Positions 1 through 41,850 of a stretch of DNA of 64,000 nucleotides are shown piece by piece. Position 1 is the stretch's first letter, and the number at the start of each line of letters is the position of its first letter. The stretch is from Escherichia phage UoN_LG358_1: the sequence record OK570374; one strand, written 5' to 3'. The position numbers and the translations under genes are program-made. Under the pieces are notes generated by a model. That model made no database searches and was not told the DNA's origin. It saw only the letters and a list, made by a program, of their open reading frames with translations.

Positions 1-2123
1 TCTTCAAGCATATACCAAATCACTGGGTATTTTTTAGCAAATTCGTCAGAAGCTTTATTAAAATCAGACTTTGACGATAAGATGAGTTTATTATAAATCT
101 TATAACATAAAGCAATTTTTTTAGCAGCTTTTGACTGTTTCACTACTGTGTTAATAGAGCGGCAATTTAATGCTTCAGCCATCTGGTTGAGAACTAAAGA
201 CTTTTCCCAGTTATCACCGGAGATAAAATTCTTCAGCAACGGATTAAGTGCCTTTATATTAATCATAGCATTGAAGCGTCTGATATTAAACAAATGCGGA
301 TGAATTAAATCATCAAGTACGTCGTCAATCAAATCTGCATAACTATCAGCTAAAATATTAAAAACTGAAGTTAGAGAATTATTGTCTTTGACATATTTCA
401 TTGCGCTAGGACGAATAGTATAAAATTCTTTTATATCTGCCGCTTTACATGCTTGTCTAATATTTTCAATGCTGTAACTCGTAGAGCATTCTGTTCTTAA
501 TTCAACAATGTCTTCTCGATTAATTCCAACTGCTAAACCTTCCAATTCACGAACTTCATTTGCAGTTAAAAACAAATTAGTCGATTCCCAATGAAGTTCT
601 GAATCCAATTTCCATAGATGAACATTCGGAGATTTTGGACGTTTAACCGCATCTGAATTATCTGGCTTATTGATTTCAGCATCTTTGGCACGGGCTTGTT
701 CCATATCAGAAGCTTTAAAAATAACTACTTCATCGCCTTCAAACAACTTCTTGGCAAGTTCTACAACTTCTAAATGGTCTTCATTATTCGGGTCAATTAA
801 AATAACTTGACAGCCTTTATGAATATTAAGGTAACTCATCCCACGAATAGTGCTTGCTCTGCGGTTTGGCTTATCGTCAATCATAAAAACAATCTTTTTC
901 TGATTAACATGAATTAAGCCAGATGCCGAATATCGATTACGCGTGCTCCATGAATTACTAATTTTGCGGCGTTCAGCCATATCGCCGACAAAGTAAGTAT
1001 ACATATTAGATGAATACATTTTATTTTCGAGAGCACGTTGGTCGAAATAATCAAGCCATTCGCGGCAAGTTTTGCCTTGAATTTTTGATTGGCTATTACC
1101 AATAATAGCAAGAGACCTGCTGGAAAATTTCTTTAACTCACGGACCAGTTCTCGCTTATTGGTTATACTTTCAAGATGTTTGATATCGTCTCTTAGATTT
1201 GTTTCTTCGATTTTATTAATTTTATTGCGAATAGCTTCGATAGTTTCTTCATTGTAAGAAAGCTCTTCACGGCTAGGAGTAATATCAAGTTCACCTAATT
1301 CAAAATTAACATAAACTGTGTTATACTTATTATTCAACCATTCGCATTTGATACCAGGAACTTCTTGAACCTTAATCGGATAAACAATTCGTCCATAAAT
1401 CGCATATAAATTCGAATCAGTATCAAAATAAGAGCGTTGTTTATCAAACCACTGCTTTTCTGGAGTAAACTCTTCGAAATAATCAATATTGATATTAGCA
1501 CCTTGAATTTCTGGTTCAACACCAGCAAATGTGCGCAAAGTACGACGGACTTCATGATGCCACTTATCAATATCGTCAGTTTTTACCGGGACAGTAATTT
1601 CAATACCGGTGTATTCATCTTCTTCCATTGCTGTGTCAAACAGCGGAATAATTTCTGGGCCAGTATTTTTCATTATAGCGGTGTAACCGCGCTTACGGCC
1701 CTTATGACAAGAAACGACTGTAAAAGTTTTTGTATAGCTAAATGGAGATTTTGAGCCAAGACCCATTGCCCCGATGAAATCATTTGAGTCGGCTTTAGTT
1801 GAAGCAAAATAAGTATTATACAAGCCTGGAGCATCATCAGTTCCACGAATTTGTTCATCGCTCATACCTGGGCCAAAATCGCGAATTACGAAGCGCGGGT
1901 CTATACGAGTAGGAACTTTAATAGTGAACGGACGAGTTTGACCATTCAGTTTATGAGCATCGAGACAGTTAGTAGATAATTCACGAACGATAGCGTAAAT
2001 TTTATTGGTGTACAACTTGTCTGAAAGAACCATGAACGCTTTCATGTTGTTCTCAATGCCAAACTTACTTGCCTTTTGATTGGCTGAACCAAAAATCTGC
2101 TCTTCTTCTTGTTTAATAATCAT
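1..2123 (-). CDS. rIIA: rIIA protein, partial (3' end beyond window edge); GHKL ATPase-like N-terminus
   Basis: Open minus-strand frame from ATG at 2123 to the window edge; N-terminus MIIKQEEEQIFGS...YTNKIYAIVRELSTNCLDAH resembles T4 rIIA and a GyrB/GHKL ATP-binding fold; sits upstream of genes 60/39 as in T4. Confidence 0.7.
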   Translation of the reverse strand, partial: MIIKQEEEQIFGSANQKASKFGIENNMKAFMVLSDKLYTNKIYAIVRELSTNCLDAHKLNGQTRPFTIKVPTRIDPRFVIRDFGPGMSDEQIRGTDDAPGLYNTYFASTKADSNDFIGAMGLGSKSPFSYTKTFTVVSCHKGRKRGYTAIMKNTGPEIIPLFDTAMEEDEYTGIEITVPVKTDDIDKWHHEVRRTLRTFAGVEPEIQGANINIDYFEEFTPEKQWFDKQRSYFDTDSNLYAIYGRIVYPIKVQEVPGIKCEWLNNKYNTVYVNFELGELDITPSREELSYNEETIEAIRNKINKIEETNLRDDIKHLESITNKRELVRELKKFSSRSLAIIGNSQSKIQGKTCREWLDYFDQRALENKMYSSNMYTYFVGDMAERRKISNSWSTRNRYSASGLIHVNQKKIVFMIDDKPNRRASTIRGMSYLNIHKGCQVILIDPNNEDHLEVVELAKKLFEGDEVVIFKASDMEQARAKDAEINKPDNSDAVKRPKSPNVHLWKLDSELHWESTNLFLTANEVRELEGLAVGINREDIVELRTECSTSYSIENIRQACKAADIKEFYTIRPSAMKYVKDNNSLTSVFNILADSYADLIDDVLDDLIHPHLFNIRRFNAMINIKALNPLLKNFISGDNWEKSLVLNQMAEALNCRSINTVVKQSKAAKKIALCYKIYNKLILSSKSDFNKASDEFAKKYPVIWYMLE

Positions 2124-2145
2124 CTTTTTCTCTCATTCACTTAAA

Positions 2146-2349
2146 TTAATCTTGGTTACGCTTAATCAATTCTGCAACTTCTAGAAGTTCTTCTGCCGTT
2201 GCGGTGTTGTTTTGTATTTTAAACCGTATTTCCTTAAAGCGTTCTTTAAAATCTTCAGCTTCACTCATGTCAAAAAATCTTTGAATGATGCGGTACTCTT
2301 TATATACAGCGTCATCAAATAATACCATACAAACGTTAAAGCTTTTCAT
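2146..2349 (-). CDS. hypothetical protein (rIIA.1 position)
   Basis: 67-aa ORF in track, co-directional, tightly packed after rIIA. Confidence 0.4.
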   Translation of the reverse strand: MKSFNVCMVLFDDAVYKEYRIIQRFFDMSEAEDFKERFKEIRFKIQNNTATAEELLEVAELIKRNQD

Positions 2350-2635
2350 TTCCTACCTCTCTGAGGATGGCTGCAAACTGGCTCATAGTGTGTTTTTCAC
2401 GTACAGAGTAAACCAGCCTCAAAGCGGTTTGTTGTAGGTTCACCGGAATGATCTGGTTGTTTTCAACTAATACAGCAATATGTTCTATCATATTAGAGAA
2501 TTTATTTAACCAGATTTCATCTGGTGTATTCTCTGTTTTATTCAGAAACATATCTTTACTATCTCTAATTGTTGCTGCTACGTTGTATAAATTAACATAA
2601 CTTCCGTTAAGCATTTTCATAGCTGTAATCACCAT
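2336..2635 (-). CDS. hypothetical protein
   Basis: 99-aa ORF in track; overlaps upstream ORF start by a few nt. Confidence 0.4.
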   Translation of the reverse strand: MVITAMKMLNGSYVNLYNVAATIRDSKDMFLNKTENTPDEIWLNKFSNMIEHIAVLVENNQIIPVNLQQTALRLVYSVREKHTMSQFAAILREVGNEKL

Positions 2636-2640
2636 ACTAA

Positions 2641-2668
2641 AAAGGGACTCCCGAAGGAGTCCCTGTTA
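2641..2668 (-). terminator. putative intrinsic terminator (hairpin GGGACUCC-UUCG-GGAGUCCC followed by U-run on minus-strand RNA)
   Basis: Plus strand AAAAGGGACTCCCGAAGGAGTCCCTG; perfect stem with UUCG tetraloop and T-run in the minus orientation. Confidence 0.5.
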
Positions 2669-2824
2669 TTACCATGTGGCTTTTGACACCATACCTGTAA
2701 CTTTCTTCAAAGAGTTGTCCGGCTGACGAACACGAATAGTAGCTATATCGCCAGGGAGAGGAAGAGCATCTCCCCACATATAACCGAAACTTCCATCTAC
2801 AAGCGTTACCCAGATTTGTGACAT
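2669..2824 (-). CDS. small hypothetical protein (51 aa)
   Basis: Hand-translated ORF MSQIWVTLVDGSFGYMWGDALPLPGDIATIRVRQPDNSLKKVTGMVSKATW between gene 60 and the terminator; below the track's length cutoff. Confidence 0.25.
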   Translation of the reverse strand: MSQIWVTLVDGSFGYMWGDALPLPGDIATIRVRQPDNSLKKVTGMVSKATW

Positions 2825-2858
2825 ATACTCTCCTATACGGGCGGAATGCCCGTATTAT

Positions 2859-3386
2859 TTATTCACTCATCCAGACCTTGCGAGGAGCCGCATCATTACC
2901 CATAACCATTTCAAAAAGTTCTTTCCAATTTGGCGGCAATGACACTACGTCATAAACCGGTTGCTGAATAACTCGTTCATATTCATCTTCTTCCAAAGAA
3001 CCAAGTCCTTTGATGTAACGAAGTTTCCATCCAGCAAGTTTATCTTTTTCAGCTTCATATTCGGCGGCATTGTAATACCATTTTTGTTCAGAGCCCTTTG
3101 ACATAATAATCACTGGGGTTTTAACAAACCGAATACGTCCTTCTTCGAACAATTTCGGCCAATTAGCAAAGAACGCTAGCAGGCTTGGATAAATTGACCC
3201 TGTGCCAAATATCTCTATTGTGAGGTATATCAATGATTAGCCCGAAGGCTAACCATCAACATCAGCATCAGTCATGATGGCAATGTTTTTATAATTCAAA
3301 GAAGAAGTTGATGTACGACGTACAATTGTCTGGGCTTTATATGATTTCATATCAATTTCAGTTTCTTTAACTTTAGCAAATTTCAT
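2859..3386 (-). CDS. 60: DNA topoisomerase II small subunit gp60, interrupted by a translational-bypass coding gap (about 3204..3251)
   Basis: N-terminal 45 codons MKFAKVKETEIDMKSYKAQTIVRRTSTSSLNYKNIAIMTDADVDG end at GGT then TAG (3251..3249), followed by UAGCC-UUCG-GGCUA hairpin; same-frame C-terminal segment ...TGSIYPSLLAFFANWPKLFEEGRIRFVKTPVII...YIKGLGSL...NWKELFEM matches T4 gp60 on both sides of its 50-nt hop. Confidence 0.7.
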
Positions 3387-4086
3387 TTAAAACCTCATAA
3401 AATTTTTCATCAGGAGTCCAACCGTTTTTAAACTGATTGAACGCGATTTTGAACAGTTTCGTTTTGATAGTTATATTATTAACCGTTTTCCATTTAGCAA
3501 TTCCGGTTTTCTTATAACTAACTGGGTCATAAACGTTAGCATACCAATCATAAAGGGACGGAATCAACTTAACTGCGTCTGGATTGGTTTTAGATTTGTT
3601 ATACCAAGGTTTAGATTTTTCAAGGGCGGCTGCTACTTTTGTAGCGTTTAACGTGTTACCAACTCCGCATAAACCAAGGTCCTTTATTAAAGGGTCGTCC
3701 GTTCTTAGTCTATAGGTTGTGTTATCTTTATCCTTGTAAACTCCGTATCCTTTCACACCTTCAAATTTTCTTCCGTAATTTACGCCAACCCAATCTTCTT
3801 CAGTGTATTCGCCTTTCGTCAGTAATCGACATTCTCCAGTTTCTTTATTTCTAAGTAAAATTTTGTCACGCATGAACTCAGCAGACCAATCTGAAATCAT
3901 ATTAACATAATTTTTCCTGGCTATTTCATAAAGTTTAGAACGAAATATTGTTCCAGAATTCATTATCCGGTTCAAAGCATAAGACATTTCTTTGTTTTTA
4001 TGAATTTTAAACAATAACCAGTGCGCAATAAAATGTTCGCGATATGTCAATTTTACCAAATTATCTGAAGTATCTAATCCACCCAT
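3373..4086 (-). CDS. mobA: HNH homing endonuclease (MobA-like), inserted between topoisomerase genes 39 and 60
   Basis: 237-aa ORF; HNH signature HHILPRSMGGLDTSDNLVKL...EHFIAHWLL begins in the in-frame stretch upstream of the first ATG (up to 4167), so the true start is uncertain. Confidence 0.6.
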   Translation of the reverse strand: MGGLDTSDNLVKLTYREHFIAHWLLFKIHKNKEMSYALNRIMNSGTIFRSKLYEIARKNYVNMISDWSAEFMRDKILLRNKETGECRLLTKGEYTEEDWVGVNYGRKFEGVKGYGVYKDKDNTTYRLRTDDPLIKDLGLCGVGNTLNATKVAAALEKSKPWYNKSKTNPDAVKLIPSLYDWYANVYDPVSYKKTGIAKWKTVNNITIKTKLFKIAFNQFKNGWTPDEKFYEVLNEIC

Positions 4087-4167
4087 GCTTCTTGGAAGTA
4101 TATGATGAATTTCTCCTTTAACCGGCGGAACCCTGGTTTTACCCCGGGAAATTAGTTTTTCTATAAT

Positions 4168-5721
4168 TCATACTAAGTCTTTTACTTTTTTCCAGACGCC
4201 ATCAATAAAAATTTCGTCATTGATATTAACTACAATATCTTCACCGGCAACATTTACAGTATACCATTGTTCGCCGGCTTCAACTTCCGTGAATGGGTCT
4301 TCACCAATGACTAACCCAGTAATTGCACAAATATCAAAGATTTCTTTGTTTTTCAAAGCATCACCTGCAGACATTCCCCAGGTGTTCATCACTTTACCAC
4401 GTAATGGATAACCGCCATGAAGGGCACGGTCACGAGTATTAATTAGATAACCAATAGCAGAATCACCTTCTGTTAAAAACAAAGTTGTTTCTACTTTATC
4501 ATTACCATATTCGCCAGCTTTGATGTGTTTATGAACTTTAGCTTTGGCCGCCTTTTTCGCTGCTTTGGTTTCTGCTGCTTTCTCTGCCGCTAGTTTACGT
4601 GCTAATGCAGCTTCAATAATCGGCATTAAAATAGCATCAGATTTCATAATCTGATTAGAAATTTTCTTTGCATCGAGATTTAAGTGAGATTTAATTTCGC
4701 CCCATGGACTTGTAAGACGCTCTTTGGTTTGCGAGTCAAAGCGCAAGTTACTCATATCTCGAATAAACATCAACACAGTAAAACACTCTTTAATACGAGC
4801 TTTGTTTACTTCAATTTTGTGTTTACGTTTAATAGCCGGAATTAATTCATTAGCAATTTCGTCAATAACATAATCAATATGCGAACCGCCATTCTTTGTA
4901 TGAATGTTGTTAACATAAGTCATTTGACGAAAACCATCTGGAGAATTACCTATAGCCAAAGAATAATTTTCTTCATCAATAATGATAGCATTTTTATCAT
5001 ACTGCTTAGAATATTTTTTGAAATTACTATCAACTTTTTTATTGTTAAATTTAAATTCAATTTTTGGATAAACGACTGCCAATGTCTGTAAACGGTCCAA
5101 CATAATATCAAAATAAACATCATCAAAATTGTTCATTTCGAAATGGCTAAAATCTGGAATAAATTCTACCTTAGTTCCTTTATAAGAGGATTTTTTGGAT
5201 TTCCAAGAAACATTGTCAGAATTATTGCTACAAGAAACTGTTAATTCATTTTCTCCATCAGATGTTGTACCTTTAAACATAACAGAGAAAATATTAGTCA
5301 ATGAAGAACCAACACCGTTTTGCCCGCCAGTTTTACGCTCTTCATCAGCTCCAAAGTTTCCGCCTGCCTTAGTTTTCGTCCATGCTGCTACTGGACCAGG
5401 AATTTCTTCACCTTCAGGAGTAGTAACCATAGCCTGTGGAATTCCACGGCCATTATCTTCTACGGTCACTTTGCTTGTGGAAGAATCGATATTGACTGAA
5501 ATTTTATTAGCAAATTTAAAACTTGTACGGATAGCTTCATCAACAGAGTTATCGATAATTTCATCAATAAGTTTGAGAACGCCAGCTACGTATTGTACCC
5601 GCTTAAATTCGCCAAAAACAAAACGCTCATGAAATTCGTTAGATACACTTCCGATGTACATTCCAGGACGCTTAAGAACGTGTTCCTTGTCAGAGAGCAT
5701 TTGAATTTTATTTTCAATCAT
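4168..5721 (-). CDS. 39: DNA topoisomerase II large subunit gp39 (GyrB-like ATPase)
   Basis: 517 aa; MIENKIQMLSDKEHVLKRPGMYIGS... GHKL/TOPRIM motifs; length matches T4 gp39. Confidence 0.9.
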   Translation of the reverse strand: MIENKIQMLSDKEHVLKRPGMYIGSVSNEFHERFVFGEFKRVQYVAGVLKLIDEIIDNSVDEAIRTSFKFANKISVNIDSSTSKVTVEDNGRGIPQAMVTTPEGEEIPGPVAAWTKTKAGGNFGADEERKTGGQNGVGSSLTNIFSVMFKGTTSDGENELTVSCSNNSDNVSWKSKKSSYKGTKVEFIPDFSHFEMNNFDDVYFDIMLDRLQTLAVVYPKIEFKFNNKKVDSNFKKYSKQYDKNAIIIDEENYSLAIGNSPDGFRQMTYVNNIHTKNGGSHIDYVIDEIANELIPAIKRKHKIEVNKARIKECFTVLMFIRDMSNLRFDSQTKERLTSPWGEIKSHLNLDAKKISNQIMKSDAILMPIIEAALARKLAAEKAAETKAAKKAAKAKVHKHIKAGEYGNDKVETTLFLTEGDSAIGYLINTRDRALHGGYPLRGKVMNTWGMSAGDALKNKEIFDICAITGLVIGEDPFTEVEAGEQWYTVNVAGEDIVVNINDEIFIDGVWKKVKDLV

Positions 5722-6327: not shown

Positions 6328-6782
6328 TATAGTAATCCTTTTAACATTTCAATAGCCGCTTTGACTTGATTTTTATTAGTAATTGCTAAAGTGATATGAG
6401 GAATTTCATTTTCTTCTGAAGCTTCATATTCGTCATCGTTTGCTGCTAAATTAGGTGTTTCAAACTTAAAATATTTAGCTTCTTCACGCAGGATAAGGAA
6501 ATATTCATCGCTGACTTTAGCATTCAAGTATCCAGGCAATCCATTGACTGTATCTTGGTCACCAACCAGTACGCCATTACACATTATAGCTGCTTCGGCA
6601 TTACCGGTCTCGGGATTGACATAAATTACTCTAAAAAATCCGCCGTTTTTCTCAATAAAGTCAATAATTTCCTCATTGTACTTATGAGCTTTAGCAAATC
6701 CAACGTAATCGCGGATTGAATACCATTTATCTTCTACAAATTCTTCTAAATTCTGTGTAGTCATTAGATAGTTTCCTTCCAA
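6327..6782 (-). CDS. hypothetical protein
   Basis: 151-aa ORF in track. Confidence 0.5.
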   Translation of the reverse strand: MEGNYLMTTQNLEEFVEDKWYSIRDYVGFAKAHKYNEEIIDFIEKNGGFFRVIYVNPETGNAEAAIMCNGVLVGDQDTVNGLPGYLNAKVSDEYFLILREEAKYFKFETPNLAANDDEYEASEENEIPHITLAITNKNQVKAAIEMLKGLL

Positions 6783-13274: not shown

Positions 13275-13793
13275 TTAGTATCCTCGGTTTTGCCGCTCAA
13301 AGTTTTCAGCATTTTTCAGATAGTAAAGTTTAAAGATTTCTTCAGCCGACATGCCTAATCCTTGGAACATATTCAACACAAAGTGAAGAATATCAATCAT
13401 TTCAAATTTAATTTCTAATTGGTCTTTTGAAGACATTTCAGAAATAAGACGATTGCGTAATTCTGCATGTTGTGCTTTCCATGGTTTCCAGACAGAAGAA
13501 GCAGCCTTCTCGCCATTAGACATACCGCCCAGAGAAGTCAACAGCTCACGGAATTCGTCATCGATATAATCTTTCTGATTACGTAGCCAATCAACAACTT
13601 CACCAGCTTTAGCTAAGTCATCTGGATTGCGGTTATAGTCAGGTTTATCATTTGCTAGACGCACTTGCAATGATTTTTGCATGTCAAGCATCACTTGAAG
13701 CGGGTCAATACCAGCATTCACAGCATCATAATACGCATTTTCTGCTTTTTCATTGCCAGAGATGAGTTGAGAACATTCATTAAAATGGGCCAT
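13275..13793 (-). CDS. 56: dCTP pyrophosphatase gp56 (MazG-like)
   Basis: MAHFNECSQLISG...DPLQVMLDMQK... matches T4 gp56; start placed at ATG 13793. Confidence 0.8.
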   Translation of the reverse strand: MAHFNECSQLISGNEKAENAYYDAVNAGIDPLQVMLDMQKSLQVRLANDKPDYNRNPDDLAKAGEVVDWLRNQKDYIDDEFRELLTSLGGMSNGEKAASSVWKPWKAQHAELRNRLISEMSSKDQLEIKFEMIDILHFVLNMFQGLGMSAEEIFKLYYLKNAENFERQNRGY

Positions 13794-13833
13794 TATATTT
13801 CCTGTCAAAGTATTAAATAGTTTAGGAGGATTT

Positions 13834-16432: not shown

Positions 16433-16723
16433 TTAAAGTCCAATCCATTCCAGCACTTCAGGAACTGATTTATTTTCACAATAAAGATTAGTGCCAGCAA
16501 CTACCAAATCATTCTGGTCGACATCTTCAATGAGCATCTTTTGATTCGCATTAGCTCCAGCAAGAAGGTCTTTAATTAGCTTAGGTTTTACCGTATCCCA
16601 ATCACCTTCGACAAATTTAAGGCATTGAATAGAATTATAATCAGCTACTCCCGGAGTTGCATGGGCTGGAACTGCTGAACATGATGCTACTACCAATACG
16701 AGACTTGCAATTAACTTTTTCAT
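16433..16723 (-). CDS. sp: periplasmic protein with signal peptide, probable Spackle (Sp)
   Basis: MKKLIASLVLVVASCSAVPAHA signal peptide from ATG 16723; about 97 aa; T4 sp position between 61 and 41. Confidence 0.5.
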   Translation of the reverse strand: MKKLIASLVLVVASCSAVPAHATPGVADYNSIQCLKFVEGDWDTVKPKLIKDLLAGANANQKMLIEDVDQNDLVVAGTNLYCENKSVPEVLEWIGL

Positions 16724-16751
16724 TATTACTCTCCAGTTTGTTGATAAAGTA

Positions 16752-16781
16752 ATAGTATCACATCCTTCCATGGATGTAAAC
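16752..16781 (-). promoter_or_regulatory. T4-type early promoter (conserved cassette with CCATGG in spacer)
   Basis: Plus AATAGTATCACATCCTTCCATGGATGTAAACGG; reverse complement gives GTTTAC-18-TACTAT. Confidence 0.4.
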
Positions 16782-16783
16782 GG

Positions 16784-17008
16784 TCAACTCAAACTTTTCA
16801 TTGCTTCTTCAAACGTTAATTTTTTAACTGAAAGATACCGCGCCGAGCTAATTTTCTTACCATTGCTAAGGACGACCAGTGTCCCGTAGTCCCATCCTGA
16901 TAAATCTATTGAGTTCCATATATCAACACATACTTGTAGTGACTCATCCGCTACTATGAACTTCTCGTGACCATCTCGGTCACGATTGGCAATTAAAACA
17001 TAAATCAA
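16784..17008 (-). CDS. hypothetical protein (dmd position)
   Basis: 74-aa ORF immediately downstream of gene 41. Confidence 0.4.
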   Translation of the reverse strand: MIYVLIANRDRDGHEKFIVADESLQVCVDIWNSIDLSGWDYGTLVVLSNGKKISSARYLSVKKLTFEEAMKSLS

Positions 17009-18444
17009 AATTTAAGTTCCTCTGCAAGTGCGTCCAGCTTAGCTCGGGCTGATGTCTGGTCCGCGCGTTGTTGTCTATTAGCCTCGGCTTTTCGTTGCTG
17101 AGCTCCGGATGTTTCAGTAACTGGAGTTGGCTGAGTTCCACCTTCCTGTGCAATTTCAACCCAGCGTTGATTTCCTTTCTTAACGCCTACCGCAAACTTA
17201 TTCCAAATATTTTTATCGCCATAACGAGATTTAATCTGCTTGATGAGTTGTTGTCCCATCTGAGCAAGTTCTTCTGTCTCAATCACAGCAAGCATGAAGT
17301 CCGCCGTTGCCGGTAAGCCAGCTGATTCTGCAATGTCGGACATATTCATATCAGAAGCATCCCATGCACCACGACCAACCTGAGCCGCAGACCAGACGAC
17401 AGTTTCTGATTCTACCGCCAGCGCACGGAGTTCTTCGGCAATTGCTTTCACTAAAGTGTAACTGTTTTCAGTATAAACACGAATACGGCAAGAACCACAT
17501 ATTCCTAGATAGTCAATCATAATGATATCAGGAACAAAATTCTTTTTAAGTTTTAACTCATTTAGTAAAGCTCTAAATGTGTTCGCATTAGCTCCGCCGG
17601 TAGGATATTGTTTAATGATTAAACGGCCAAGAGTATTTTTATCTCGCCATTTTTCCATCTTACCTTTGTATTCTGCATATGACACATTGCCGTCATCAAT
17701 ATCATCCAAAGATACATCAAGTAAGTTAGCATCAATACGTTTAGCGCAGACCTCCTCGGCCATCTCCATGGAGATATAAAGAACATTCTTACCAGTTTGA
17801 AGATAATCAGCTGCTAAAGAACACAATCCAAGAGACTTACCAACGTTAACACCAGCCATGAGAATGTTGAGAGTGCCAGTTTCTGCCCCGCCCTTAGTGA
17901 TACGGTTCAAAATATTCATCAAGAATGGAACTTTACGAGCCTTGTTCTGATACGCTAACCAACGAGCTTCATAATCTTCCATCCAATCATGACCGACATA
18001 AGAGTCAAAACTAATAGAAAGAGCTTGACGCATAATGTCTGGAATTGCTCCAACATCCGGTAATTTTTTGTTTCTTTTTTCTGGCGGTAGTTCAGCGTTC
18101 GTTTGAATTTCAATGATTTTTGATGTTGCATTATACATCGCATGAGACTGTACATATTTCTCAGTCTCTTTTACCAACCATGCTTGGTCTTCTGGCGTAT
18201 CTGCTAATTTATCAATTAATTTTTTGGCTTGTTCAGCTTCAGATTCACCTAGAGTTGAATTGTCTAACGCAATATTCAAAGCATTGATTGAAGGGACAGA
18301 TTGATATTCGTTGATATGTTTTTGTAATAAGTTAAACACATTTTTAGCCGGGCCATGTTCAAAATATTCTGAATCCATATATGGCCAAACTTTTGCGAAA
18401 TATCCTTGATTAAAAATAAGATGCGATAATATTGTTTCTACCAC
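17005..18444 (-). CDS. 41: replicative DNA helicase gp41 (DnaB-like)
   Basis: 479 aa; Walker A GVNVGKS and DnaB-family architecture; size matches T4 gp41. Confidence 0.9.
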   Translation of the reverse strand: MVETILSHLIFNQGYFAKVWPYMDSEYFEHGPAKNVFNLLQKHINEYQSVPSINALNIALDNSTLGESEAEQAKKLIDKLADTPEDQAWLVKETEKYVQSHAMYNATSKIIEIQTNAELPPEKRNKKLPDVGAIPDIMRQALSISFDSYVGHDWMEDYEARWLAYQNKARKVPFLMNILNRITKGGAETGTLNILMAGVNVGKSLGLCSLAADYLQTGKNVLYISMEMAEEVCAKRIDANLLDVSLDDIDDGNVSYAEYKGKMEKWRDKNTLGRLIIKQYPTGGANANTFRALLNELKLKKNFVPDIIMIDYLGICGSCRIRVYTENSYTLVKAIAEELRALAVESETVVWSAAQVGRGAWDASDMNMSDIAESAGLPATADFMLAVIETEELAQMGQQLIKQIKSRYGDKNIWNKFAVGVKKGNQRWVEIAQEGGTQPTPVTETSGAQQRKAEANRQQRADQTSARAKLDALAEELKF

Positions 18445-20258: not shown

Positions 20259-21335
20259 TTACAGGTCAATAGCCTTGCGGAACTCTTCTTGCCAAATTGG
20301 TTTTTCATCAAGATATTTTTGAAGAATTTTGTGCTGATATTTCAAAGTTTCAACACGGAACTCTTCATCTTCTTTAATCTTGTTGATTTTATCTACTAAT
20401 TCTTGACGATTACTCACATAAAAGAAATCATTACCTTCCATGATATTCATGTCAGGGTCAAACGTGCTATCGAAGAATGCCACTGCAGTAGATGCTAGAG
20501 CTTCCCATACACGAGGAGTGATTTGGTTGTTATCGTAGGTTTTATCACCTAATACAATAGTAGCATACGCGGTTGAGTTGCGTTGAACCATTTCACGAGA
20601 GTCTACTTTACCGGGGAATACCGGCGGAGTCGTCCAAGGAAATTCTGGGTTCTTGAACTGTTCTGCTTTCACTGAACCAAAGAATTCAACATCCAATCCA
20701 GTATCAAATAGGTATTCAACCATTTTAGCTTCACGGTTACCAGAACGGAAAGTGCCGCCATAAATCAGGTCTCGCATTTTGATGCCATCTGCGGCAATCT
20801 TAAAGACACTATGATACATTTTATGACGGTCCAAAGCAAAATGAACGAATTCTAGTTTATCGGATAAACATCCAACTAAACGATCAGAATGAATTTTCTT
20901 GCATTGCTCTAGATTTCTTCCTTGAGATACAATACGCATTGGAGATGTTACAATGAATTGTTCTTCTTTATATTTACTGGACCATTTCTTTTTAGACATC
21001 CTTCGCCAAGCTTGCTCAAACGGAAGACGAATATCGGTGAACAAATAATAAATTTTTGATTTATACTTATTCATGAACATATAAGCTTCTTTGTTCATCT
21101 TATTTTCTTCGCCGCCATAGAAGTTCAGAGCAGCATTAACGACCAATAAGCGGTCATACACATTCGGGTCTTTTACTGAATCGAAAGAAATTCCATACTG
21201 TGTATTTTTCATTGAAATAAGGTCAACATCAAGACCCATATCTTTTAAACATTCGGACAAATAAATTGTTTCTGAAGCAGGGGTTGTTTTAAACCCCTGG
21301 ATGTTATTGCCCATATTAATAATAGCAATTTTCAT
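20259..21335 (-). CDS. bgt: DNA beta-glucosyltransferase
   Basis: 358 aa; MKIAIINMGNNI...YKSKIYYLFTDIRLPF...SIIWN... strong match to T4 beta-gt. Confidence 0.8.
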   Translation of the reverse strand: MKIAIINMGNNIQGFKTTPASETIYLSECLKDMGLDVDLISMKNTQYGISFDSVKDPNVYDRLLVVNAALNFYGGEENKMNKEAYMFMNKYKSKIYYLFTDIRLPFEQAWRRMSKKKWSSKYKEEQFIVTSPMRIVSQGRNLEQCKKIHSDRLVGCLSDKLEFVHFALDRHKMYHSVFKIAADGIKMRDLIYGGTFRSGNREAKMVEYLFDTGLDVEFFGSVKAEQFKNPEFPWTTPPVFPGKVDSREMVQRNSTAYATIVLGDKTYDNNQITPRVWEALASTAVAFFDSTFDPDMNIMEGNDFFYVSNRQELVDKINKIKEDEEFRVETLKYQHKILQKYLDEKPIWQEEFRKAIDL

Positions 21336-22168
21336 AGTGTCGGTTCAATCTCGCTAAATTTATGAAAAGCATCTGACTTCTGCTTTTTAGCAACACACAT
21401 ACGAAGTACTTTCAAAGGTTCATCAGTACCAAACATAGTTTTGGTTGGGTCACCTTCTGATTTCCACCGAGCTTGAGTTGGGAAGTCAGCATGAATTTTT
21501 TCCAGCGCTCTGTTCTGTTTAGCAGCATTACGCATAGATGATACACCGCCTGGAGCTTGTCCTTTACCTGATTTAACGAGATATTTAAAAATCGCCAAAT
21601 GAGGATAACCCATATTAATGAGTTTAAGAAACGCGTATGTATCTTCGGATAGGTCTACTATACCATATCCAATGTCATCGGCAGAAAGTTTGCTTAAATC
21701 ATAAAAAGTATTTGTAAACCCGTAAGAGTTCTCACGGAAATGACCCCATTTAGAGTCAATCTTGAATATTGGCAAGCGAGCGTGACCATGATAAAAGCCG
21801 CAGTCCATCGCTGTTTCAACATAAAGACAAAGATTATTAAATTCATCCCAGGTCATTCCAACATCATGGAGAATGCGCCGGTCATCTTTTTCGCGAATTT
21901 CCGTTGTATGAATAGTAGTATCATCATCCAACATCCAAATTCGTTGTCCTTGATACATTTCGGTGATTAAACGACGAGTACCAGCAATCCCATTTACATC
22001 ATCCGGGATAGTTACTATTTTAGCAATTGTGCTATATCGAGTTTCGTATTCTTCTTTTTGAGACTCGCGAACTACAAGATGAGCGACATAACCTTCAGGG
22101 AACATGTCTAGGGCAGTAACTGCCCCGGCACGATTATAACTTGGAATTACAAATTGAATCATTTCCAA
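21332..22168 (-). CDS. putative GT-A-fold glycosyltransferase (second DNA sugar-transferase candidate)
   Basis: 278 aa; N-terminal FVIPSYNRAG and DxD-like WMLDDDTT motifs; between beta-gt and gene 42. Confidence 0.5.
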   Translation of the reverse strand: MEMIQFVIPSYNRAGAVTALDMFPEGYVAHLVVRESQKEEYETRYSTIAKIVTIPDDVNGIAGTRRLITEMYQGQRIWMLDDDTTIHTTEIREKDDRRILHDVGMTWDEFNNLCLYVETAMDCGFYHGHARLPIFKIDSKWGHFRENSYGFTNTFYDLSKLSADDIGYGIVDLSEDTYAFLKLINMGYPHLAIFKYLVKSGKGQAPGGVSSMRNAAKQNRALEKIHADFPTQARWKSEGDPTKTMFGTDEPLKVLRMCVAKKQKSDAFHKFSEIEPTL

Positions 22169-22896
22169 TAACCTTTGTAATCTTTCTTTGGTATATGAGT
22201 TTCACCAGTGTGATAAAAATGGTCAACTAGATAAAATTGATTTTCATATACATGGAGGCTTCCGGCGTTCCAAATAATGTCACCAACTACATATTTTTTA
22301 TCGCGACCGCAGTTAAGTGTCTGTACTAATAATTCTAATACATGTTTTTGCCAAGCATAGTCATTACGATAACCTGCCCAGCAATCGTTGCTTCTCATAC
22401 TCACAACAGCATGAACTTGCTCATCGCGAATTAAGTATTGAACCGTGTTTGTACACATGAAATCACTCATACCGTCACGGTTATAATCAGTCTGCATACT
22501 TGGACGAGTATAAATCATAATTCCACGGCGAGAATCTGGATTGACACTCAGTTCAGCCGCACAACTTGCAAATTGGCTATAATTATCTTTATTCCAAATC
22601 GCCCATCCGTAGTTTGAGTTAATCTCGCCGTTTTTGGATGAAATCTGGTCCCAAATTGCTGGAGTTTTTCCTGGAATGTCTTTAACGAATAAACTTTGAG
22701 ACTTATACCATTCTAATTCGCGGGCTACATACTCATCATTAACTGAACCAAAAATAAGTTCTTCATCTGCAACAAAAGACGCGCCGATAATTTCAATAGT
22801 TTTTACGCCAGTTTTGTCAATAACAAACTCTTCATTTTCGAGAGCTACAGCAAATTCCTGACGAATGTCTTGTACTGTCAAAGGTGTGATAATCAT
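22159..22896 (-). CDS. 42: dCMP hydroxymethylase gp42
   Basis: 245 aa; DKTGVKTIEIIGASFVADE...PDSRRGIMIYTRPSMQ...MCTNTVQYLIRD matches T4 gp42. Confidence 0.9.
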   Translation of the reverse strand: MIITPLTVQDIRQEFAVALENEEFVIDKTGVKTIEIIGASFVADEELIFGSVNDEYVARELEWYKSQSLFVKDIPGKTPAIWDQISSKNGEINSNYGWAIWNKDNYSQFASCAAELSVNPDSRRGIMIYTRPSMQTDYNRDGMSDFMCTNTVQYLIRDEQVHAVVSMRSNDCWAGYRNDYAWQKHVLELLVQTLNCGRDKKYVVGDIIWNAGSLHVYENQFYLVDHFYHTGETHIPKKDYKGYWK

Positions 22897-29764: not shown

Positions 29765-31446
29765 TTTTCCATTACCGTGAATCTGCCAACTTTCTTCATC
29801 TGAAGATGTTGCCCATAATCCTGCGGGTCATGGTCTTTATGGCTTATGATAAAGATATTACTATCAGTCATTCCATTGAGAATTGTTCCTACTCGCTTAA
29901 TACCTTCATTATCAAACGCGCCATCATAAACTTCATCAAGAAAGAGACAGTTAATTTTAACATTAGAAACTTTTTCAGCAATGTCTCGCCACGTGAACAG
30001 CAACGCAATATCAATACGAGCTTTTTCGCCTTGGCTGAATGACGCATAACTGAATTCTTCGCGCCCGCGAGATTTAATAGTTTCGGTGAATTCTTCGTTC
30101 AAAGTAAAGACATAATCAGCTTCCATAATTTTAAGATACTGATTAATCTGTTTGTTGAACATCGGAATATATTTGCTAATAATAGCTCCCTTGATACCCG
30201 AATCTTTCAGCATTTCAGTTAAAATGCCTCGATGATATTTTTCCATAACCATATTGGATTTGGTATCAACTATTTTATTCAATTCTTCGTTAAGCGTTTT
30301 AATCTCATCGGCATGATTGATGAATTCTTTTGATGCTTTTTCAATCGCCGCTTTTACTTTTTTAGCCTTTTCTACTGTTGAAATTAAAGTTTGCTTTTTA
30401 GATTTTATGTCTTGAGCAAGTTCACGTTGCGTTCTAACGTTGCTCTCATATTCATGCACTAGTGTCTCTAGATTGGCTCTATGACTTTCTAACGACTCTG
30501 ATTTATGTTTACATTCATTAATCTTATCGTTAATCTGAGTGACTAGAGATGACCCAGAGTCTAATTGTTGCATGCATGTTGGGCATGAACCTCCAGAATG
30601 ATACAAAGAAACAACCTTGTTATATGAGTCAATTTTAGACTTAATCAACAGAGTTTGATTACCAATTTCAGTAAACGCGGACCGAGGGTCTTCATCAAGC
30701 ACGATAGATGTTAAACGCTCAGTTGCTTTTTCAATTTCGGATTTGATAGAACGTGCTTCAGTCGCAAGTTCATCATACATGGTCTGAAAACGAGCTATAT
30801 TTTCTCCTGATAGCTTTTTCTGGCGTTCAACGTTCTCTTCATAAATTTTAATCTGTTGGATAATTCCGTCTTTCTTTGCGTCCAACACAGAGACTTGTGA
30901 ATTAATTTCTCTTATATGAGATTTATTCAATTTATCCATTTCAGCTAATGTAGAAACTTCGAGCAAGTCTTCTACTAACTTCCGCCGAGCTGGAGTACTC
31001 AAACCCATGAACGGTGTATAACCAGCTGTACCAAGCACAACTACTTGCTTAAAGCTGGAATAAGACATTTTGATAAGTTCTTCAAAATAGCTTTGAAAAT
31101 CTTTAACAGAAGCTGCCTCGTCCAGGCGAACTCCGTCTCGAGTTATTTCAAAGATATTCGGCTTTTGACCGCGCTTTATATAAAAATGCTTACCGTCATA
31201 CTCCATCCAAAGCTCTACTAACATATCTTTTTTATTAATAGAGTTTACTAGTTGTCCTTTCTTAATATCACGGAACGGTTTGCCAAATAAAGCAAATGTA
31301 ATAGCTTCCAGCATGGTACTCTTACCACCACCATTTTTGCCGGTGATGAGAGTTTTTTGTACCTTATCAAGTTGAATATCAATTGGAACTTGTCCAACAG
31401 ACATTATATTAGAATATTTTACTCTATTAAGTTTAAAGGTTTTCAT
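29761..31446 (-). CDS. 46: recombination endonuclease subunit gp46 (Rad50/SbcC-like)
   Basis: 561 aa; Walker A GKNGGGKST, coiled-coil middle with CPTC zinc hook, signature/Walker B at C-terminus. Confidence 0.9.
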   Translation of the reverse strand: MKTFKLNRVKYSNIMSVGQVPIDIQLDKVQKTLITGKNGGGKSTMLEAITFALFGKPFRDIKKGQLVNSINKKDMLVELWMEYDGKHFYIKRGQKPNIFEITRDGVRLDEAASVKDFQSYFEELIKMSYSSFKQVVVLGTAGYTPFMGLSTPARRKLVEDLLEVSTLAEMDKLNKSHIREINSQVSVLDAKKDGIIQQIKIYEENVERQKKLSGENIARFQTMYDELATEARSIKSEIEKATERLTSIVLDEDPRSAFTEIGNQTLLIKSKIDSYNKVVSLYHSGGSCPTCMQQLDSGSSLVTQINDKINECKHKSESLESHRANLETLVHEYESNVRTQRELAQDIKSKKQTLISTVEKAKKVKAAIEKASKEFINHADEIKTLNEELNKIVDTKSNMVMEKYHRGILTEMLKDSGIKGAIISKYIPMFNKQINQYLKIMEADYVFTLNEEFTETIKSRGREEFSYASFSQGEKARIDIALLFTWRDIAEKVSNVKINCLFLDEVYDGAFDNEGIKRVGTILNGMTDSNIFIISHKDHDPQDYGQHLQMKKVGRFTVMEK

Positions 31447-32275
31447 TTAATATCCGTCTGTCAAATTCGGCTACTATAGCTTGTAAAGAACTTGTTATGG
31501 GATGCCCGAGTTTAATAAGTTCTTTTGAAAATGTAGAATATCTAGGTTTATTCATTTTAATCCACTCTGTATAAAGCAAATCAAAATTTTGCCATTGATA
31601 CGATTTTCTTCTGGATTTTAAATGAGCCTCTCTAATTTCGTCATTCTTCCAACTTTGAGAAACTCCCAATGATAAAGATTTACGATAATCTAAATTTTTA
31701 GATGAGAGTCTAGTTGCATTTAAATGCTTAATTTTATTTTCTGGATTTTCAAACCACTCTTTAGTTTTCTTAGATACTAAAGACTTAAATTCATTTGAAT
31801 TTACTCGTTCCAGGTGAATTTTTAAATTATCGGAATTTTCAAACCATCGTTTGACTGCTTGGCTAATTTTTATTCTGTTTTCTGCTATTGAATAATAACT
31901 GGACATTTTGATTGAAATAGCCTTTGAAATTTCAGTAGAAACTTTTGAATATATTTTAGCCATTTCTTCAAATTCTTCAAAACTACATTTATAAGCAGTT
32001 TTGCTATTATTCATTCTATTAATAGCTTGCAACATTCTATAATCTTTAGTTTCAGACAATATAGCATGTGCAATAAAATGGTTATAATGTGTTAAATGCA
32101 CAATATTTGACGGGTCTTTAGCATATTCTGGAAAAATGGACTTTGGTAAAATATGATGAGCTTGAGTATGTCCTTTGTTTAACTTGGTTGAATTAGTTTT
32201 AATAAATTCTACATACTTATTAACGCCTTCCCATTGAGGGAAGGCTGCTTTTAATATAGTCTCAGCGTCAATCAT
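31433..32275 (-). CDS. HNH homing endonuclease inserted between genes 46 and 47
   Basis: 280 aa; HHILPKS...NIVHLTHYNHFIAH HNH motif plus repeated WFEN-type motifs in the C-terminal half; overlaps both neighbours. Confidence 0.65.
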   Translation of the reverse strand: MIDAETILKAAFPQWEGVNKYVEFIKTNSTKLNKGHTQAHHILPKSIFPEYAKDPSNIVHLTHYNHFIAHAILSETKDYRMLQAINRMNNSKTAYKCSFEEFEEMAKIYSKVSTEISKAISIKMSSYYSIAENRIKISQAVKRWFENSDNLKIHLERVNSNEFKSLVSKKTKEWFENPENKIKHLNATRLSSKNLDYRKSLSLGVSQSWKNDEIREAHLKSRRKSYQWQNFDLLYTEWIKMNKPRYSTFSKELIKLGHPITSSLQAIVAEFDRRILNENL

Positions 32276-33294
32276 TGATTTTGGACCTCGATATAAAGTT
32301 GATTAGCATATTTTATAACTGCTTTCCTGTCATCGTTGGATAAATCAGGTAAAGAGTTAATATATTCTTCCATAAGTTCAAGTAAGCTTTTAACTTCTAC
32401 TTCAGCTTCTTCATCAACTTCAAGAGAATTATCAATCTTTGAAACGGTACGAAGCTCATGAACAACTTTTTCGAGTTCGCTTTCAAATTTTGGAAGGTCT
32501 TTATCAACTTCTGTAATAATGACACGAACTGAAATATTTTTGTAACGATTAATATCAAATTTACCCTTAAATGGATAAATTATTTTTTGATGCCAACATG
32601 TTTCGTTTTCGATAAAATCAAAACTGTCATCTTGAGTGTCCTGTATCCAAAAACCTCGCGGGTCATTTTCGTCTCCCGCAGTAAGTGTCCATGGTGTGCC
32701 AATATATTTGACATTAGCGGCACTAGAGATAGTATGGAAGTGTCCAGAACGAACATGTTTATATTTTTTAAGGAAATCAGGTTCCAACCCGTGGGATTTT
32801 AATCCTTTGTAGTAATAAAAACCACTTAATTCCCAATGACCAATGCAAATATCAGCATCAGATGTTTTGATGTGATTCATTATATCGGACGCGTTCTCTT
32901 CGCACATCCACGGAATCATATCAATCAAACAACCATCAAAATCTACAGTTTCAGGAATATCATGAATTATGATATGGTCATATTTACCGAGAATCTCAGT
33001 AATCGCGTTAGGGCGAAGTGTGTTCTTATAATGCATGTCATGATTACCAATTATGGTATGCATCGTAATACCAGCTTCATCCAATAGCGTTGCTATCTCA
33101 CGGGCAAATTCCATAGTCTTATGAGTGATAGCTTTACGAACGTCAAAGATGTCGCCGTACTGAACCCATGTAGTTATGCCATGCTTTTTAGAATATTCAA
33201 TCTTTTGACGTATTCCATCTCGCTGGATATTCTGAAGCCAAGGGTCATCGCCCTTAACTCCTAAATGCCAATCACCTGTGTGAAGAATTTTCAT
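32272..33294 (-). CDS. 47: recombination endonuclease subunit gp47 (Mre11/SbcD-like)
   Basis: 340 aa; MKILHTGDWHLG phosphoesterase motif I and GNHD motifs. Confidence 0.9.
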   Translation of the reverse strand: MKILHTGDWHLGVKGDDPWLQNIQRDGIRQKIEYSKKHGITTWVQYGDIFDVRKAITHKTMEFAREIATLLDEAGITMHTIIGNHDMHYKNTLRPNAITEILGKYDHIIIHDIPETVDFDGCLIDMIPWMCEENASDIMNHIKTSDADICIGHWELSGFYYYKGLKSHGLEPDFLKKYKHVRSGHFHTISSAANVKYIGTPWTLTAGDENDPRGFWIQDTQDDSFDFIENETCWHQKIIYPFKGKFDINRYKNISVRVIITEVDKDLPKFESELEKVVHELRTVSKIDNSLEVDEEAEVEVKSLLELMEEYINSLPDLSNDDRKAVIKYANQLYIEVQNQ

Positions 33295-33434
33295 ATATCA
33301 AGCGCCGTCATAGCTGAGAGAATTAATATCATAGAAATGAACCCATCTGGTGTAGAAAAGAATCCAACCCAACAAGCTCGGCCAAATAAGTATAATCCTG
33401 CCAATAGGCTAAGTATGCCTAAGTAAGTAATCAT
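33291..33434 (-). CDS. small hydrophobic peptide (47 aa)
   Basis: Hand-translated MITYLGILSLLAGLYLFGRACWVGFFSTPDGFISMILILSAMTALDI; stop overlaps gene 47 ATG (ATGA). Confidence 0.25.
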   Translation of the reverse strand: MITYLGILSLLAGLYLFGRACWVGFFSTPDGFISMILILSAMTALDI

Positions 33435-33480
33435 CTTTTCACCCCAAATATATTTTTAACATGTACAAAAATGATAATTA

Positions 33481-33510
33481 ATTATATCAAATGTATAAAA
33501 AGCAAATTAA
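33481..33510 (-). promoter_or_regulatory. possible MotA-dependent middle promoter
   Basis: Minus strand aTTTGCTTTtta (MotA-box-like) 13 bp upstream of TATAAT. Confidence 0.35.
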
Positions 33511-33836
33511 TACGCGCACAATATTTTTGAAACGTTTGACTGGTTAATTTTGTGAATAAACTCACATTTTTCTTCTGGCGATAATTCGTGATTTCTGATG
33601 AGTGTCGCACAAGGATATTTTGGTGGATAATCTTTCTTTAAAACTAAAAGCAACTCATCCAAATATCCGCAACTATCATAAGCATGCCGAAGTTTAACAA
33701 TATCAACATGCTTAATGCGTTCAAAATCTTTAGAGCTTTGTACTGTACTTCGCCAATGCACTTCATTATCTTTAGTCGTTGGAGAAATATAAACTGCAAC
33801 TCTTAGTTCAGTGTCATTTAATTTAATTTTTTCCAT
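33507..33836 (-). CDS. hypothetical protein (occupies T4 alpha-gt region)
   Basis: ATG 33836 with SD GAGG; track ORF starts with TTG further upstream. Confidence 0.45.
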   Translation of the reverse strand: MEKIKLNDTELRVAVYISPTTKDNEVHWRSTVQSSKDFERIKHVDIVKLRHAYDSCGYLDELLLVLKKDYPPKYPCATLIRNHELSPEEKCEFIHKINQSNVSKILCAY

Positions 33837-33845
33837 TATTACCTC

Positions 33846-33871
33846 AAAGAACAAAGGGAGCCTCGGCTCCC
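33846..33871 (-). terminator. hairpin GGGAGCC-GAG-GCTCCC, possible terminator
   Basis: Perfect 6-bp GC-rich stem followed by a U-rich stretch in the minus orientation, immediately before the next SD. Confidence 0.35.
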
Positions 33872-34008
33872 TTAAATTTTACGATATGTTATAGTATTTT
33901 CGGCTTTTGCTTTATCGTGTAATAGTTTGAATTGTGACATCATTTCAGACATGCTGTTATGTATTTTTGTATAATCAACAGTCTTCTTTGGAGTTTCTGC
34001 CACGATTT

Positions 34009-34221
34009 TTACCATTTCCACCACCGTTTAACTTGAAAAGTATCAGCCCAAACTAATGTTTTTTCATCTATAGCAATCTCTGAACTTTTAGTTACACCAT
34101 ACGGACCAAGAATTTTGTATGTGTTTTTAGAAGTTTTTAGAGCCATTGTTCCATTAACCATAGATAGAGTGAAACAGGCATTAACTTTAAGACGTTTGAA
34201 TTTAACCTTTACTATTGCCAT
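34009..34221 (-). CDS. hypothetical protein
   Basis: 70-aa ORF in track. Confidence 0.3.
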   Translation of the reverse strand: MAIVKVKFKRLKVNACFTLSMVNGTMALKTSKNTYKILGPYGVTKSSEIAIDEKTLVWADTFQVKRWWKW

Positions 34222-34534
34222 TTACAATTTCCCAAATCTGTCGACGAGTGGTTTCCCACTGTACTTTGACAAGTTCATCTGTATAAGGTTGGCGTAAAAT
34301 GTCCCGAGATTTCTCGATAGCATATTTGTACGCCGCGAAGTTATTTTCTACTACTACTGCTCTTTGTGCATGCTCATTTAAACGTTTAAGTTCTTTTGCA
34401 TGCTTTTTATAAATTTTCGCTGCTTTAGCGTTAGCTTCTTGACGTGTTGCTTCTTCCATTCGAGCGATAATTTGTTCTACTTCTTCTGGGTTTTCATCAA
34501 TTTTATTGATATTATCAATAATCTCTGGAGACAT
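34202..34534 (-). CDS. hypothetical protein
   Basis: 110-aa ORF in track. Confidence 0.45.
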   Translation of the reverse strand: MSPEIIDNINKIDENPEEVEQIIARMEEATRQEANAKAAKIYKKHAKELKRLNEHAQRAVVVENNFAAYKYAIEKSRDILRQPYTDELVKVQWETTRRQIWEIVNGNSKG

Positions 34535-34543
34535 TTAATTACC

Positions 34544-34744
34544 TTATTTTGGAAAATAATCCAATGAAAAATAAAATCCGTCAGGAGATACAACATACTG
34601 ATGAGGAACTTCTTTTCCATCAACAATAAATGTAATATCATGCGGATTAGTTGGGTCAATATGAATATCCATTTCGAGAACTTCCCTTAAATACATTTTT
34701 AGTATATAAGGAATAGCTTCTAATTCTGGAATATCTTCAAGCAT
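34544..34744 (-). CDS. hypothetical protein
   Basis: ATG 34744 follows the gp55 stop; track ORF extends upstream into gene 55. Confidence 0.4.
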   Translation of the reverse strand: MLEDIPELEAIPYILKMYLREVLEMDIHIDPTNPHDITFIVDGKEVPHQYVVSPDGFYFSLDYFPK

Positions 34745-34754
34745 TCCTGCGAGG

Positions 34755-35294
34755 TCAATCTTCAGCCTCATATAAAAAATCCAAATTCGGAGAATCATCT
34801 ATTTCAACACTCTTTTTGTCAGACCCTGGTGCTTTGTAGGTAGATTCTTCATAATGCGTCATTTTATCGTAGATGTCCTGAATGAACGTTTCATCTGCTA
34901 ACGCGACCATATCATCGTCACGACTGTCATAGACATTGTGAACAAAATAGCTATATTTCTTTGCCATCTCTTTGCGTTCTTTTTTGATACGCTGAACGAA
35001 AGCATTAAAACAAGCCTGAGTTATGTATGCATGTGGGTTTTTGTATTTCTCTTCGTCAAAGTTTTTGAGACCTTTAATAGCAGCCTCAACTCCATCAGAA
35101 ATCATTTCATCTTTCCATGATTGGGTGTATCCTGAAAAGTTAAAACGCTTTGACAATCCCTCGGAAATAAGCATAATAGCTTTTCCAATAGTGTCATTCT
35201 GACGAACAAGCGTTCCTTCTGGCGCTTCTCTACATTTTTGTTTCCATTCACATATTGCGTTGTAAAGCTCTTTGTTGTTTACATAGTCAGCCAT
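34755..35294 (-). CDS. 55: late-transcription sigma factor gp55
   Basis: 179 aa; ...[32 protein letters not shown]...[23 protein letters not shown]... near-identical to T4 gp55. Confidence 0.9.
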
Positions 35295-41677: not shown

Positions 41678-41842
41678 CTCAATTATATAGCCAATATGTC
41701 CTTGCCCATTTCTTACGGTTTCGGATTTGAGTTTTAGTCGGCTTAGTAGAGAACCACCAGGAAATTTTATATCCATCGTCAAAATCAAAAATTAGATGCC
41801 ATTTAGACATCTGATTTGATACATACTTTAATTCAGTTTTCA
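41678..41842 (-). CDS. small hypothetical protein (54 aa)
   Basis: Hand-translated MKTELKYVSNQMSKWHLIFDFDDGYKISWWFSTKPTKTQIRNRKKWARTYWLYN. Confidence 0.2.
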
Positions 41843-41850
41843 TTTAAATA

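Follow-up and report, generated by a model that had tools for sequence, protein, structure and literature searches.

An orthologue of the T2/T6 glucosyl-DNA beta-glucosyltransferase encoded beside beta-gt in Escherichia phage UoN_LG358_1

Between the beta-glucosyltransferase gene (beta-gt) and gene 42 of Escherichia phage UoN_LG358_1 (record OK570374), of which a stretch of 64,000 nt was analysed (the whole of it is called the window here), lies a minus-strand open reading frame (ORF) for a glycosyltransferase of the TAGT family. Sequence comparison and a structural model indicate that this ORF (21332..22162) is a real, intact and functional GT-A glycosyltransferase and the orthologue of the T2/T6 enzyme ba-gt, which also goes by the names glucosyl-DNA beta-glucosyltransferase, g-gt and TAGT, the last being used below. 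We think it reasonably probable that this Gelderlandvirus orthologue adds a beta-linked second glucose to beta-glucosyl-hydroxymethylcytosine (beta-glucosyl-hmC). Both the observation and its main inference are already known from print, the gene is correctly annotated in the near-identical Salmonella phage STP4-a, and the window represents an ordinary example of an established family in an arrangement already described; our own addition is confirmation, together with a small comparative result on TAGT and its partner enzyme.

The ORF listing contains an uninterrupted minus-strand frame at 21332..22168, which reads as 278 aa from a TTG at 22168. The listing and the Pfam assignments of the neighbouring genes bear out the first-pass annotation of the window in placing a real ORF between beta-gt and gene 42. 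The intact frame behind its 278-aa protein also stands, but the start does not: the TTG at 22168 is almost certainly only the mechanical beginning of the ORF, and the true product is the 276-aa protein encoded by 21332..22162. We favour the ATG at 22162 because it and the gene 42 stop codon, TGA, overlap as ATGA (5′-end sequence ...TGG AAA TGA), because the STP4-a record annotates an 831-nt version of the gene that starts at this ATG, and because MIQ(F/V)VIPSY is the N-terminus common to all homologues aligned. At its other end, the TGA stop of the TAGT ORF overlaps the ATG of beta-gt in the same ATGA fashion.

The 276-aa translation is 100% identical to STP4a_036, whose GenBank label is "beta-glucosyl-HMC-alpha-glucosyl-transferase", and 64% identical, across 99% of its length, to the proteins of T6, RB14 and other members of Tequatrovirus. 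It matches phrog_842 ('beta-glucosyl-HMC-alpha-glucosyltransferase') at 3.7e-82 over positions 3-268 of 270, and 11 of the 14 homologues found carry a precomputed match to the Pfam TAGT family, PF20691. The first-pass annotation had named the T2/T6 beta-alpha-glucosyltransferase as a comparison to be made; that comparison returned a clear orthologue in the same slot beside gene 42, a relationship which the annotation itself had missed, and its interpretation is partly supported.

A tblastn search of 50,697 phage records found a homologue in 688. At least 80% identity was reached in 59 of these records (at least 90% in 58), which comprise Gelderlandvirus and phages of Enterobacter, Cronobacter and Citrobacter, and 616 records fell at 60–80%, among them Tequatrovirus including T6 and RB14 (~64%) and Klebsiella phages (~72%). 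A profile search of 1.84 billion cluster representatives yielded 1395 relatives at E ≤ 1e-3, so by sequence the window protein is one branch of a large family. The ratio of non-synonymous to synonymous substitution rates (dN/dS) was 0.039 against phage CC31 (dS 0.87) and 0.10–0.25 against more distant homologues, which points to strong purifying selection on the gene. The conservation across 688 phage records and the value of 0.039 rule out a reading of the ORF as a pseudogene or a chance frame.

The GT-A type proposed in the first-pass annotation was upheld by structure prediction. An AlphaFold2 model built from a 13-sequence alignment (mean predicted local distance difference test score (pLDDT) 82.9; predicted TM-score 0.84) had as its best Foldseek matches in the Protein Data Bank (PDB) the GT2-type GT-A enzymes WrtF, RmlT, K4CP (K4 chondroitin polymerase), TarS and TarP, with E values of 5e-7 to 1e-4 and TM ~0.5. 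In BFVD, the ba-gt of Klebsiella phage PKO111 came first (TM 0.94), followed by many phage proteins with a TAGT domain (TM 0.64-0.74). When solved structures were searched by sequence, the one match had an E value of 0.63 and was of no use. As modelled, TAGT resembles inverting GT2 enzymes, DxD metal-dependent and with a GT-A fold. Both motifs that had first drawn attention to the protein were recovered: residues 4-13 read FVIPSYNRAG and residues 76-81 read WMLDDD (276-aa numbering). Among 13 aligned homologues R11, D79-D80-D81 (including the DxD) and E173-D174 are invariant and Y176 is nearly so; the R...DDD...ED(x)Y/F active-site motif definition of the TAGT family was taken from a preprint. 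In the T6 record AP018814.1 (locus 2507-3346) the TAGT reads WMIDDTTI and is 279 aa long, the GATGATGAT run behind the invariant DDD motif being one GAT codon short, which is either an assembly error or a laboratory-stock mutation.

The partner enzyme in the window is a GT-B beta-glucosyltransferase of 358 aa (20259..21335, minus strand), the start of which is coupled to the TAGT stop. It matches PF09198 at 2.6e-62 and PHROG 7922 at 5e-226, is 50% identical to T4 beta-gt, and keeps all six of the T4 residues E22, D100, R191, R195, R269 and E272, which comprise the catalytic Asp100 and those that bind uridine diphosphate (UDP). No other primary hmC glucosyltransferase was detected in the window. 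In T4 the interval between gene 47 and gene 55 contains alpha-gt, mobB and a-gt.2 to a-gt.5. The corresponding interval of the window (33295..34754, minus strand), between gene 47 (32272..33294, a Metallophos match) and gene 55 (34755..35294, a sigma factor by STP4-a annotation), measures 1.46 kb and holds ORFs of 47-115 aa only, all of which match small PHROGs of unknown function. With T4 alpha-gt as query, tblastn over the window and over positions 359-159914 of STP4-a gave a best E value of 0.57, which is chance level. Likewise, a Pfam scan found no glycosyltransferase domain in eight larger STP4-a ORFs that lack a functional name, in STP4a_005 (a GyrB/Toprim topoisomerase subunit by Pfam) or in a 280-aa ORF of the window. 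The absence of alpha-gt noted in the first-pass annotation, with small ORFs alone in the T4 slot, is therefore confirmed at the sensitivity of tblastn, Pfam and PHROG searches.

Because the enzyme that makes the alpha linkage appears to be missing, the sugar pattern predicted from gene content cannot equal that of T4 (alpha and beta monoglucosyl) or that of T2/T6 (alpha-glucosyl and alpha-linked gentiobiosyl), and the earlier suggestion of a pattern different from T4's is to that extent borne out. Co-occurrence with alpha-gt, the source of the alpha-glucosyl-hmC acceptor and a feature of the T2/T6 ba-gt group, was found neither in the window nor in STP4-a. The sequence family fits, but on gene content the group's biochemical definition, 'acts on alpha-glucosyl-hmC', cannot hold here in its literal form.

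These observations allow us to propose how the DNA of such a phage would be modified. Translation would be coupled through 42-TAGT-beta-gt, with TAGT in the middle of the unit. As established for the family, gp42 and dCTPase would replace dC by hmC in phage DNA; the window encodes a dCMP hydroxymethylase to supply the hmC base (gene 42, 22159..22896, minus strand, 245 aa; Thymidylat_synt at 1.6e-15 and STP4-a annotation), whose stop overlaps the TAGT start, and a gene 56-like dCTPase/dUTPase of the hmC-DNA pathway (13275..13808, minus strand; dUTPase_2 at 2.7e-06, in the position of the STP4-a 'dCTP pyrophosphatase'). The beta-glucosyltransferase, as the only primary transferase found, would very probably then move glucose from UDP-glucose to form beta-glucosyl-hmC. 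TAGT would, on the evidence of orthology and with somewhat better than even prospects, add a second glucose from UDP-glucose onto the first in a beta linkage, which is 1→6 in T6 and probably is so here too. Some fraction of residues would then bear a disaccharide of the gentiobiosyl type, bonded to hmC in the beta rather than the alpha configuration. The T2/T6 orthologue adds a beta-linked glucose to glucosyl-hmC to give gentiobiosyl-hmC (PMC13216743; PMC6024577), and deletion of the T6 TAGT gene removes the diglucosyl form (bioRxiv 10.64898/2026.02.25.707755).

A survey of 753 phage genomes (PMC13216743, NAR 2026) discusses the combination of beta-gt and TAGT without alpha-gt and poses the question whether TAGTs are blind to the linkage of the first sugar or come in two kinds. 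We compared TAGT and beta-gt genes taken from representative genomes in which the partner enzyme is known. The window TAGT, whose partner is beta-gt, is 73% identical to that of a Klebsiella phage and 64% identical to that of T6, both partnered by alpha-gt, whereas its identity to the TAGTs of PS2 and of an Acinetobacter phage, both partnered by beta-gt, is 49%; T6 and Klebsiella TAGTs share 65%. In this set, TAGT sequence identity follows phage lineage and not partner enzyme. Just two conservative columns, F142Y and V169I, separate four beta-partnered from two alpha-partnered TAGTs. As markers of partner specificity these columns were rejected, since arbitrary partitions of the same sequences yield as many separating columns and since two TAGTs directly upstream of a beta-gt break the pattern, P0007 having Y142 and P0012 having I169. 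No residue is diagnostic of partner type among the sequences compared, and there is no sequence-level sign of two kinds of TAGT. This absence of a partner signature mildly favours a TAGT that recognises the first glucose whatever its anomeric bond, which is suggestive only, because specificity can shift through few or non-homologous substitutions. With no division of the TAGT sequences by partner enzyme, the most economical interpretation is that the window enzyme would recognise glucose and not the anomeric bond to the base.

Several points weigh against extension of beta-glucosyl-hmC by this enzyme. We infer the acceptor, the donor sugar, the linkage position and the extent of modification alike from sequence. 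The characterised orthologue works on alpha-glucosyl-hmC, and 64% identity leaves room for another acceptor or donor. The PF20691 match, at 29.4 bits against a gathering cut-off of 27.5 (E 9.6e-07), is barely over threshold and covers the N-terminal third only (residues 5-90; model positions 2-98 of 205). In the AlphaFold2 model a disordered loop, residues 132-146, adjoins the invariant ENSYGFTN segment with a pLDDT below 50, so that the acceptor pocket is unreadable. Other TAGT enzymes, namely the base-J glucosyltransferase (JGT), metagenomic phage GT-As and 'solitary' TAGTs, evidently act directly on the hydroxymethyl base. The searchable literature gave no DNA chemistry for Gelderlandvirus, Karamvirus, Moonvirus, S16, STP4-a or any phage with beta-gt and TAGT, although a statement elsewhere in print is possible.

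If TAGT were instead a second primary transferase, the DNA would bear no disaccharide but either two different monosaccharide-hmC forms or a single form made by two redundant routes. GT-A enzymes of the TAGT/JGT family that act directly on the hydroxymethyl base have been described, the 1395 cluster representatives in the family profile lie mostly far from T-even phages, and in the survey many phages, 288 of the 753 genomes, carry a 'solitary' TAGT homologue with neither alpha-gt nor beta-gt (PMC13216743). Yet the closest characterised relative, 64% identical and at the same locus, is a secondary transferase, and the gene is repeatedly and tightly linked to a primary GT-B transferase across several genera. 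Moreover, an inverting UDP-glucose enzyme working on hmC would duplicate the beta-gt product, which sits poorly with strong purifying selection. We regard a second primary transferase as unlikely.

More doubtful still is that TAGT adds a second sugar other than glucose (from, for example, a UDP-galactose or UDP-GlcNAc donor), or adds it other than 1→6, to form a disaccharide unrelated to gentiobiose. Related phage GT-A and GT-B enzymes install varied hexoses and HexNAc, 36% of residues differ from the T6 enzyme, and the acceptor-side loop has no confident model; against this, all motif residues in common with the T6 type are invariant, and no sugar-nucleotide epimerase or synthase occurs near the cluster in the window or in the STP4-a annotation, which favours UDP-glucose, the universal host donor and the one that T6 uses. 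The gene might also be a conserved remnant with little or no activity, leaving the DNA with essentially beta-monoglucosyl-hmC only. The precedent is T2, in which the same enzyme gives ~5% gentiobiosyl-hmC against ~72% in T6 (figures reported in bioRxiv 10.64898/2026.02.25.707755, among others), and gene presence is no predictor of extent. We hold a remnant to be very improbable, given an intact frame with all catalytic motifs, the dN/dS of 0.039, overlaps of the translational-coupling type, and 92-100% conservation across Gelderlandvirus, Moonvirus and Karamvirus. Addition of a second, beta-linked glucose to beta-glucosyl-hmC is the reading that we retain; the first-pass annotation had put forward a second sugar on that base as a possibility, and by homology it is the most reasonable one.

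Compared with the T2/T6 system, the window enzyme shares, besides 64% full-length identity (276 versus 280 aa), the slot directly downstream of gene 42, PHROG 842, PF20691 and the invariant R...DDD...ED-x-Y motifs. In T2/T6 the partner is alpha-gt, beta-gt is absent and the acceptor is alpha-glucosyl-hmC, whereas in the window the partner is beta-gt, alpha-gt is absent and the only glucosylated acceptor predicted to be available is beta-glucosyl-hmC. T4 resembles the window in having two DNA glucosyltransferases per T-even-type genome, and the window beta-gt is a true homologue of T4's; the second enzyme of T4, however, is a GT-B primary transferase that makes the opposite anomer, whereas that of the window is an unrelated GT-A enzyme which, by homology, would extend the sugar. 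With the wider TAGT/JGT superfamily (PF20691) the window protein shares a predicted GT-A fold, the DDD and ED-x-Y motifs and, presumably, action on hydroxymethyl-pyrimidine DNA. Whereas most members occur with dioxygenases of the TET/JBP type and modify the base itself, the window TAGT accompanies a thymidylate-synthase-type hydroxymethylase and a GT-B primary transferase. From Karamvirus (CC31, PG7), Moonvirus (Moon, Merlin) and other Gelderlandviruses (S16, STML-198, Melville), which have 92-100% identical proteins, the order 42-TAGT-beta-gt-uvsX and no alpha-gt, the window shows no difference of substance and is one more member of that set.

This gene content has been in print since Thomas et al. 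2018 (PMC6024577), who report that CC31, STML-198, Moon and PS2 all have a homologue of T4 b-gt and of T2 ba-gt. A beta-gt with a ba-gt homologue and no alpha-gt is tabulated there for STP4-a, S16, STML-198, CC31, PG7, Moon, Merlin and PS2, and for STP4-a their Table 1 gives 'n/a' for a-gt and puts the homologues of b-gt and ba-gt at 50% and 64%, respectively. The identities computed here for beta-gt (50%) and TAGT (64%) are exactly those values.

TAGT lies immediately downstream of gene 42 in the window, T6, the Klebsiella phage, CC31 and PM123. The order 42-TAGT-beta-gt-(uvsX or 40) is found in Gelderlandvirus, Karamvirus, Muldoonvirus, the Acinetobacter phage, the Tequatrovirus vB_EcoM-PM123 and two metagenomic contigs, while T6 and Klebsiella phages have 42-TAGT-uvsX and T4 has 42-beta-gt. 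We infer that the cassette of TAGT and beta-gt is the older arrangement, of which T4 and T6 each keep half.

Escherichia phage vB_EcoM-PM123 (MZ234043.1) itself has all three transferase types. Its alpha-gt (record 16457-17656) is 91.5% identical to T4's; at locus 1653-3577 it has a T6-type TAGT, 95% identical to T6's, and an intact beta-gt-like gene of 358 aa, 45% identical to the window's and matching PF09198 at 2e-61. The sister records G3F8, G3G6, CHD2BS1 and UPWr_E2 have the same beta-gt-like match beside a 'glucosyl transferase'. PMC13216743 reports just one phage with all three transferases. Phages of the Muldoonvirus-like lineage have, between gene 42 and TAGT, an additional ORF of 308-313 aa for which Pfam gave no match (Serratia phage PS2_042, locus L007 629-1555; locus L012 3014-3955); its place within the modification cassette makes it a candidate for another role in modification.

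By nucleotide comparison the window belongs to Gelderlandvirus and is ~99.7% identical to Salmonella phage STP4-a. The 20-kb stretch around TAGT is 99.9% identical to STP4-a (KJ000058.2, genus Gelderlandvirus) and 98.4% to S16; alignment with STP4-a runs at 99.1-99.97% in all long blocks except one (97.4% over 2.9 kb), with a few insertions and deletions, and base composition is uniform at ~36% GC. The 280-aa window ORF scanned for glycosyltransferase domains (31433..32275, minus strand) lies between genes 46 and 47, where STP4-a has just a 68-aa ORF. It matches homing-endonuclease PHROGs (phrog_655 at 2.9e-36; the HNH phrog_12434), and this homing-endonuclease-like ORF accounts for the ~0.9-kb insertion of the window relative to STP4-a. 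Further stretches that do not align to STP4-a lie at ~3206-4298, 6508-6628 and 41780-42228. A scan for promoters and terminators returned 14 sites against 12.6 expected.

Which host defences a T-even-type phage can evade is decided by the sugars that coat its hmC: alpha-glucosyl-hmC is the only form that Brig1 removes, enzymes of the GmrSD type cleave several glucosylated forms, and the BapA hydrolase is unable to take gentiobiose off T6 DNA (PMC13216743; bioRxiv 10.64898/2026.02.25.707755). We suggest, with the balance of evidence close to even, that phages of Gelderlandvirus, Moonvirus and Karamvirus, including the biocontrol phage S16, carry a chemically undescribed beta-linked diglucosyl-hmC (either beta-gentiobiosyl-hmC or one of its positional isomers), to which beta-gt contributes the first glucose and an anomer-indifferent TAGT the second, and that T-even phages ancestrally had the 42-TAGT-beta-gt cassette, TAGT having since been lost in T4 and beta-gt in T2/T6. 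If so, the beta-linked disaccharide would be a further variant in this arms race, in phages that are used for Salmonella biocontrol, and would bear on the ease with which such phages are restricted, engineered or sequenced. The question raised in PMC13216743, whether TAGTs distinguish the linkage of their substrate, would be answered as well.

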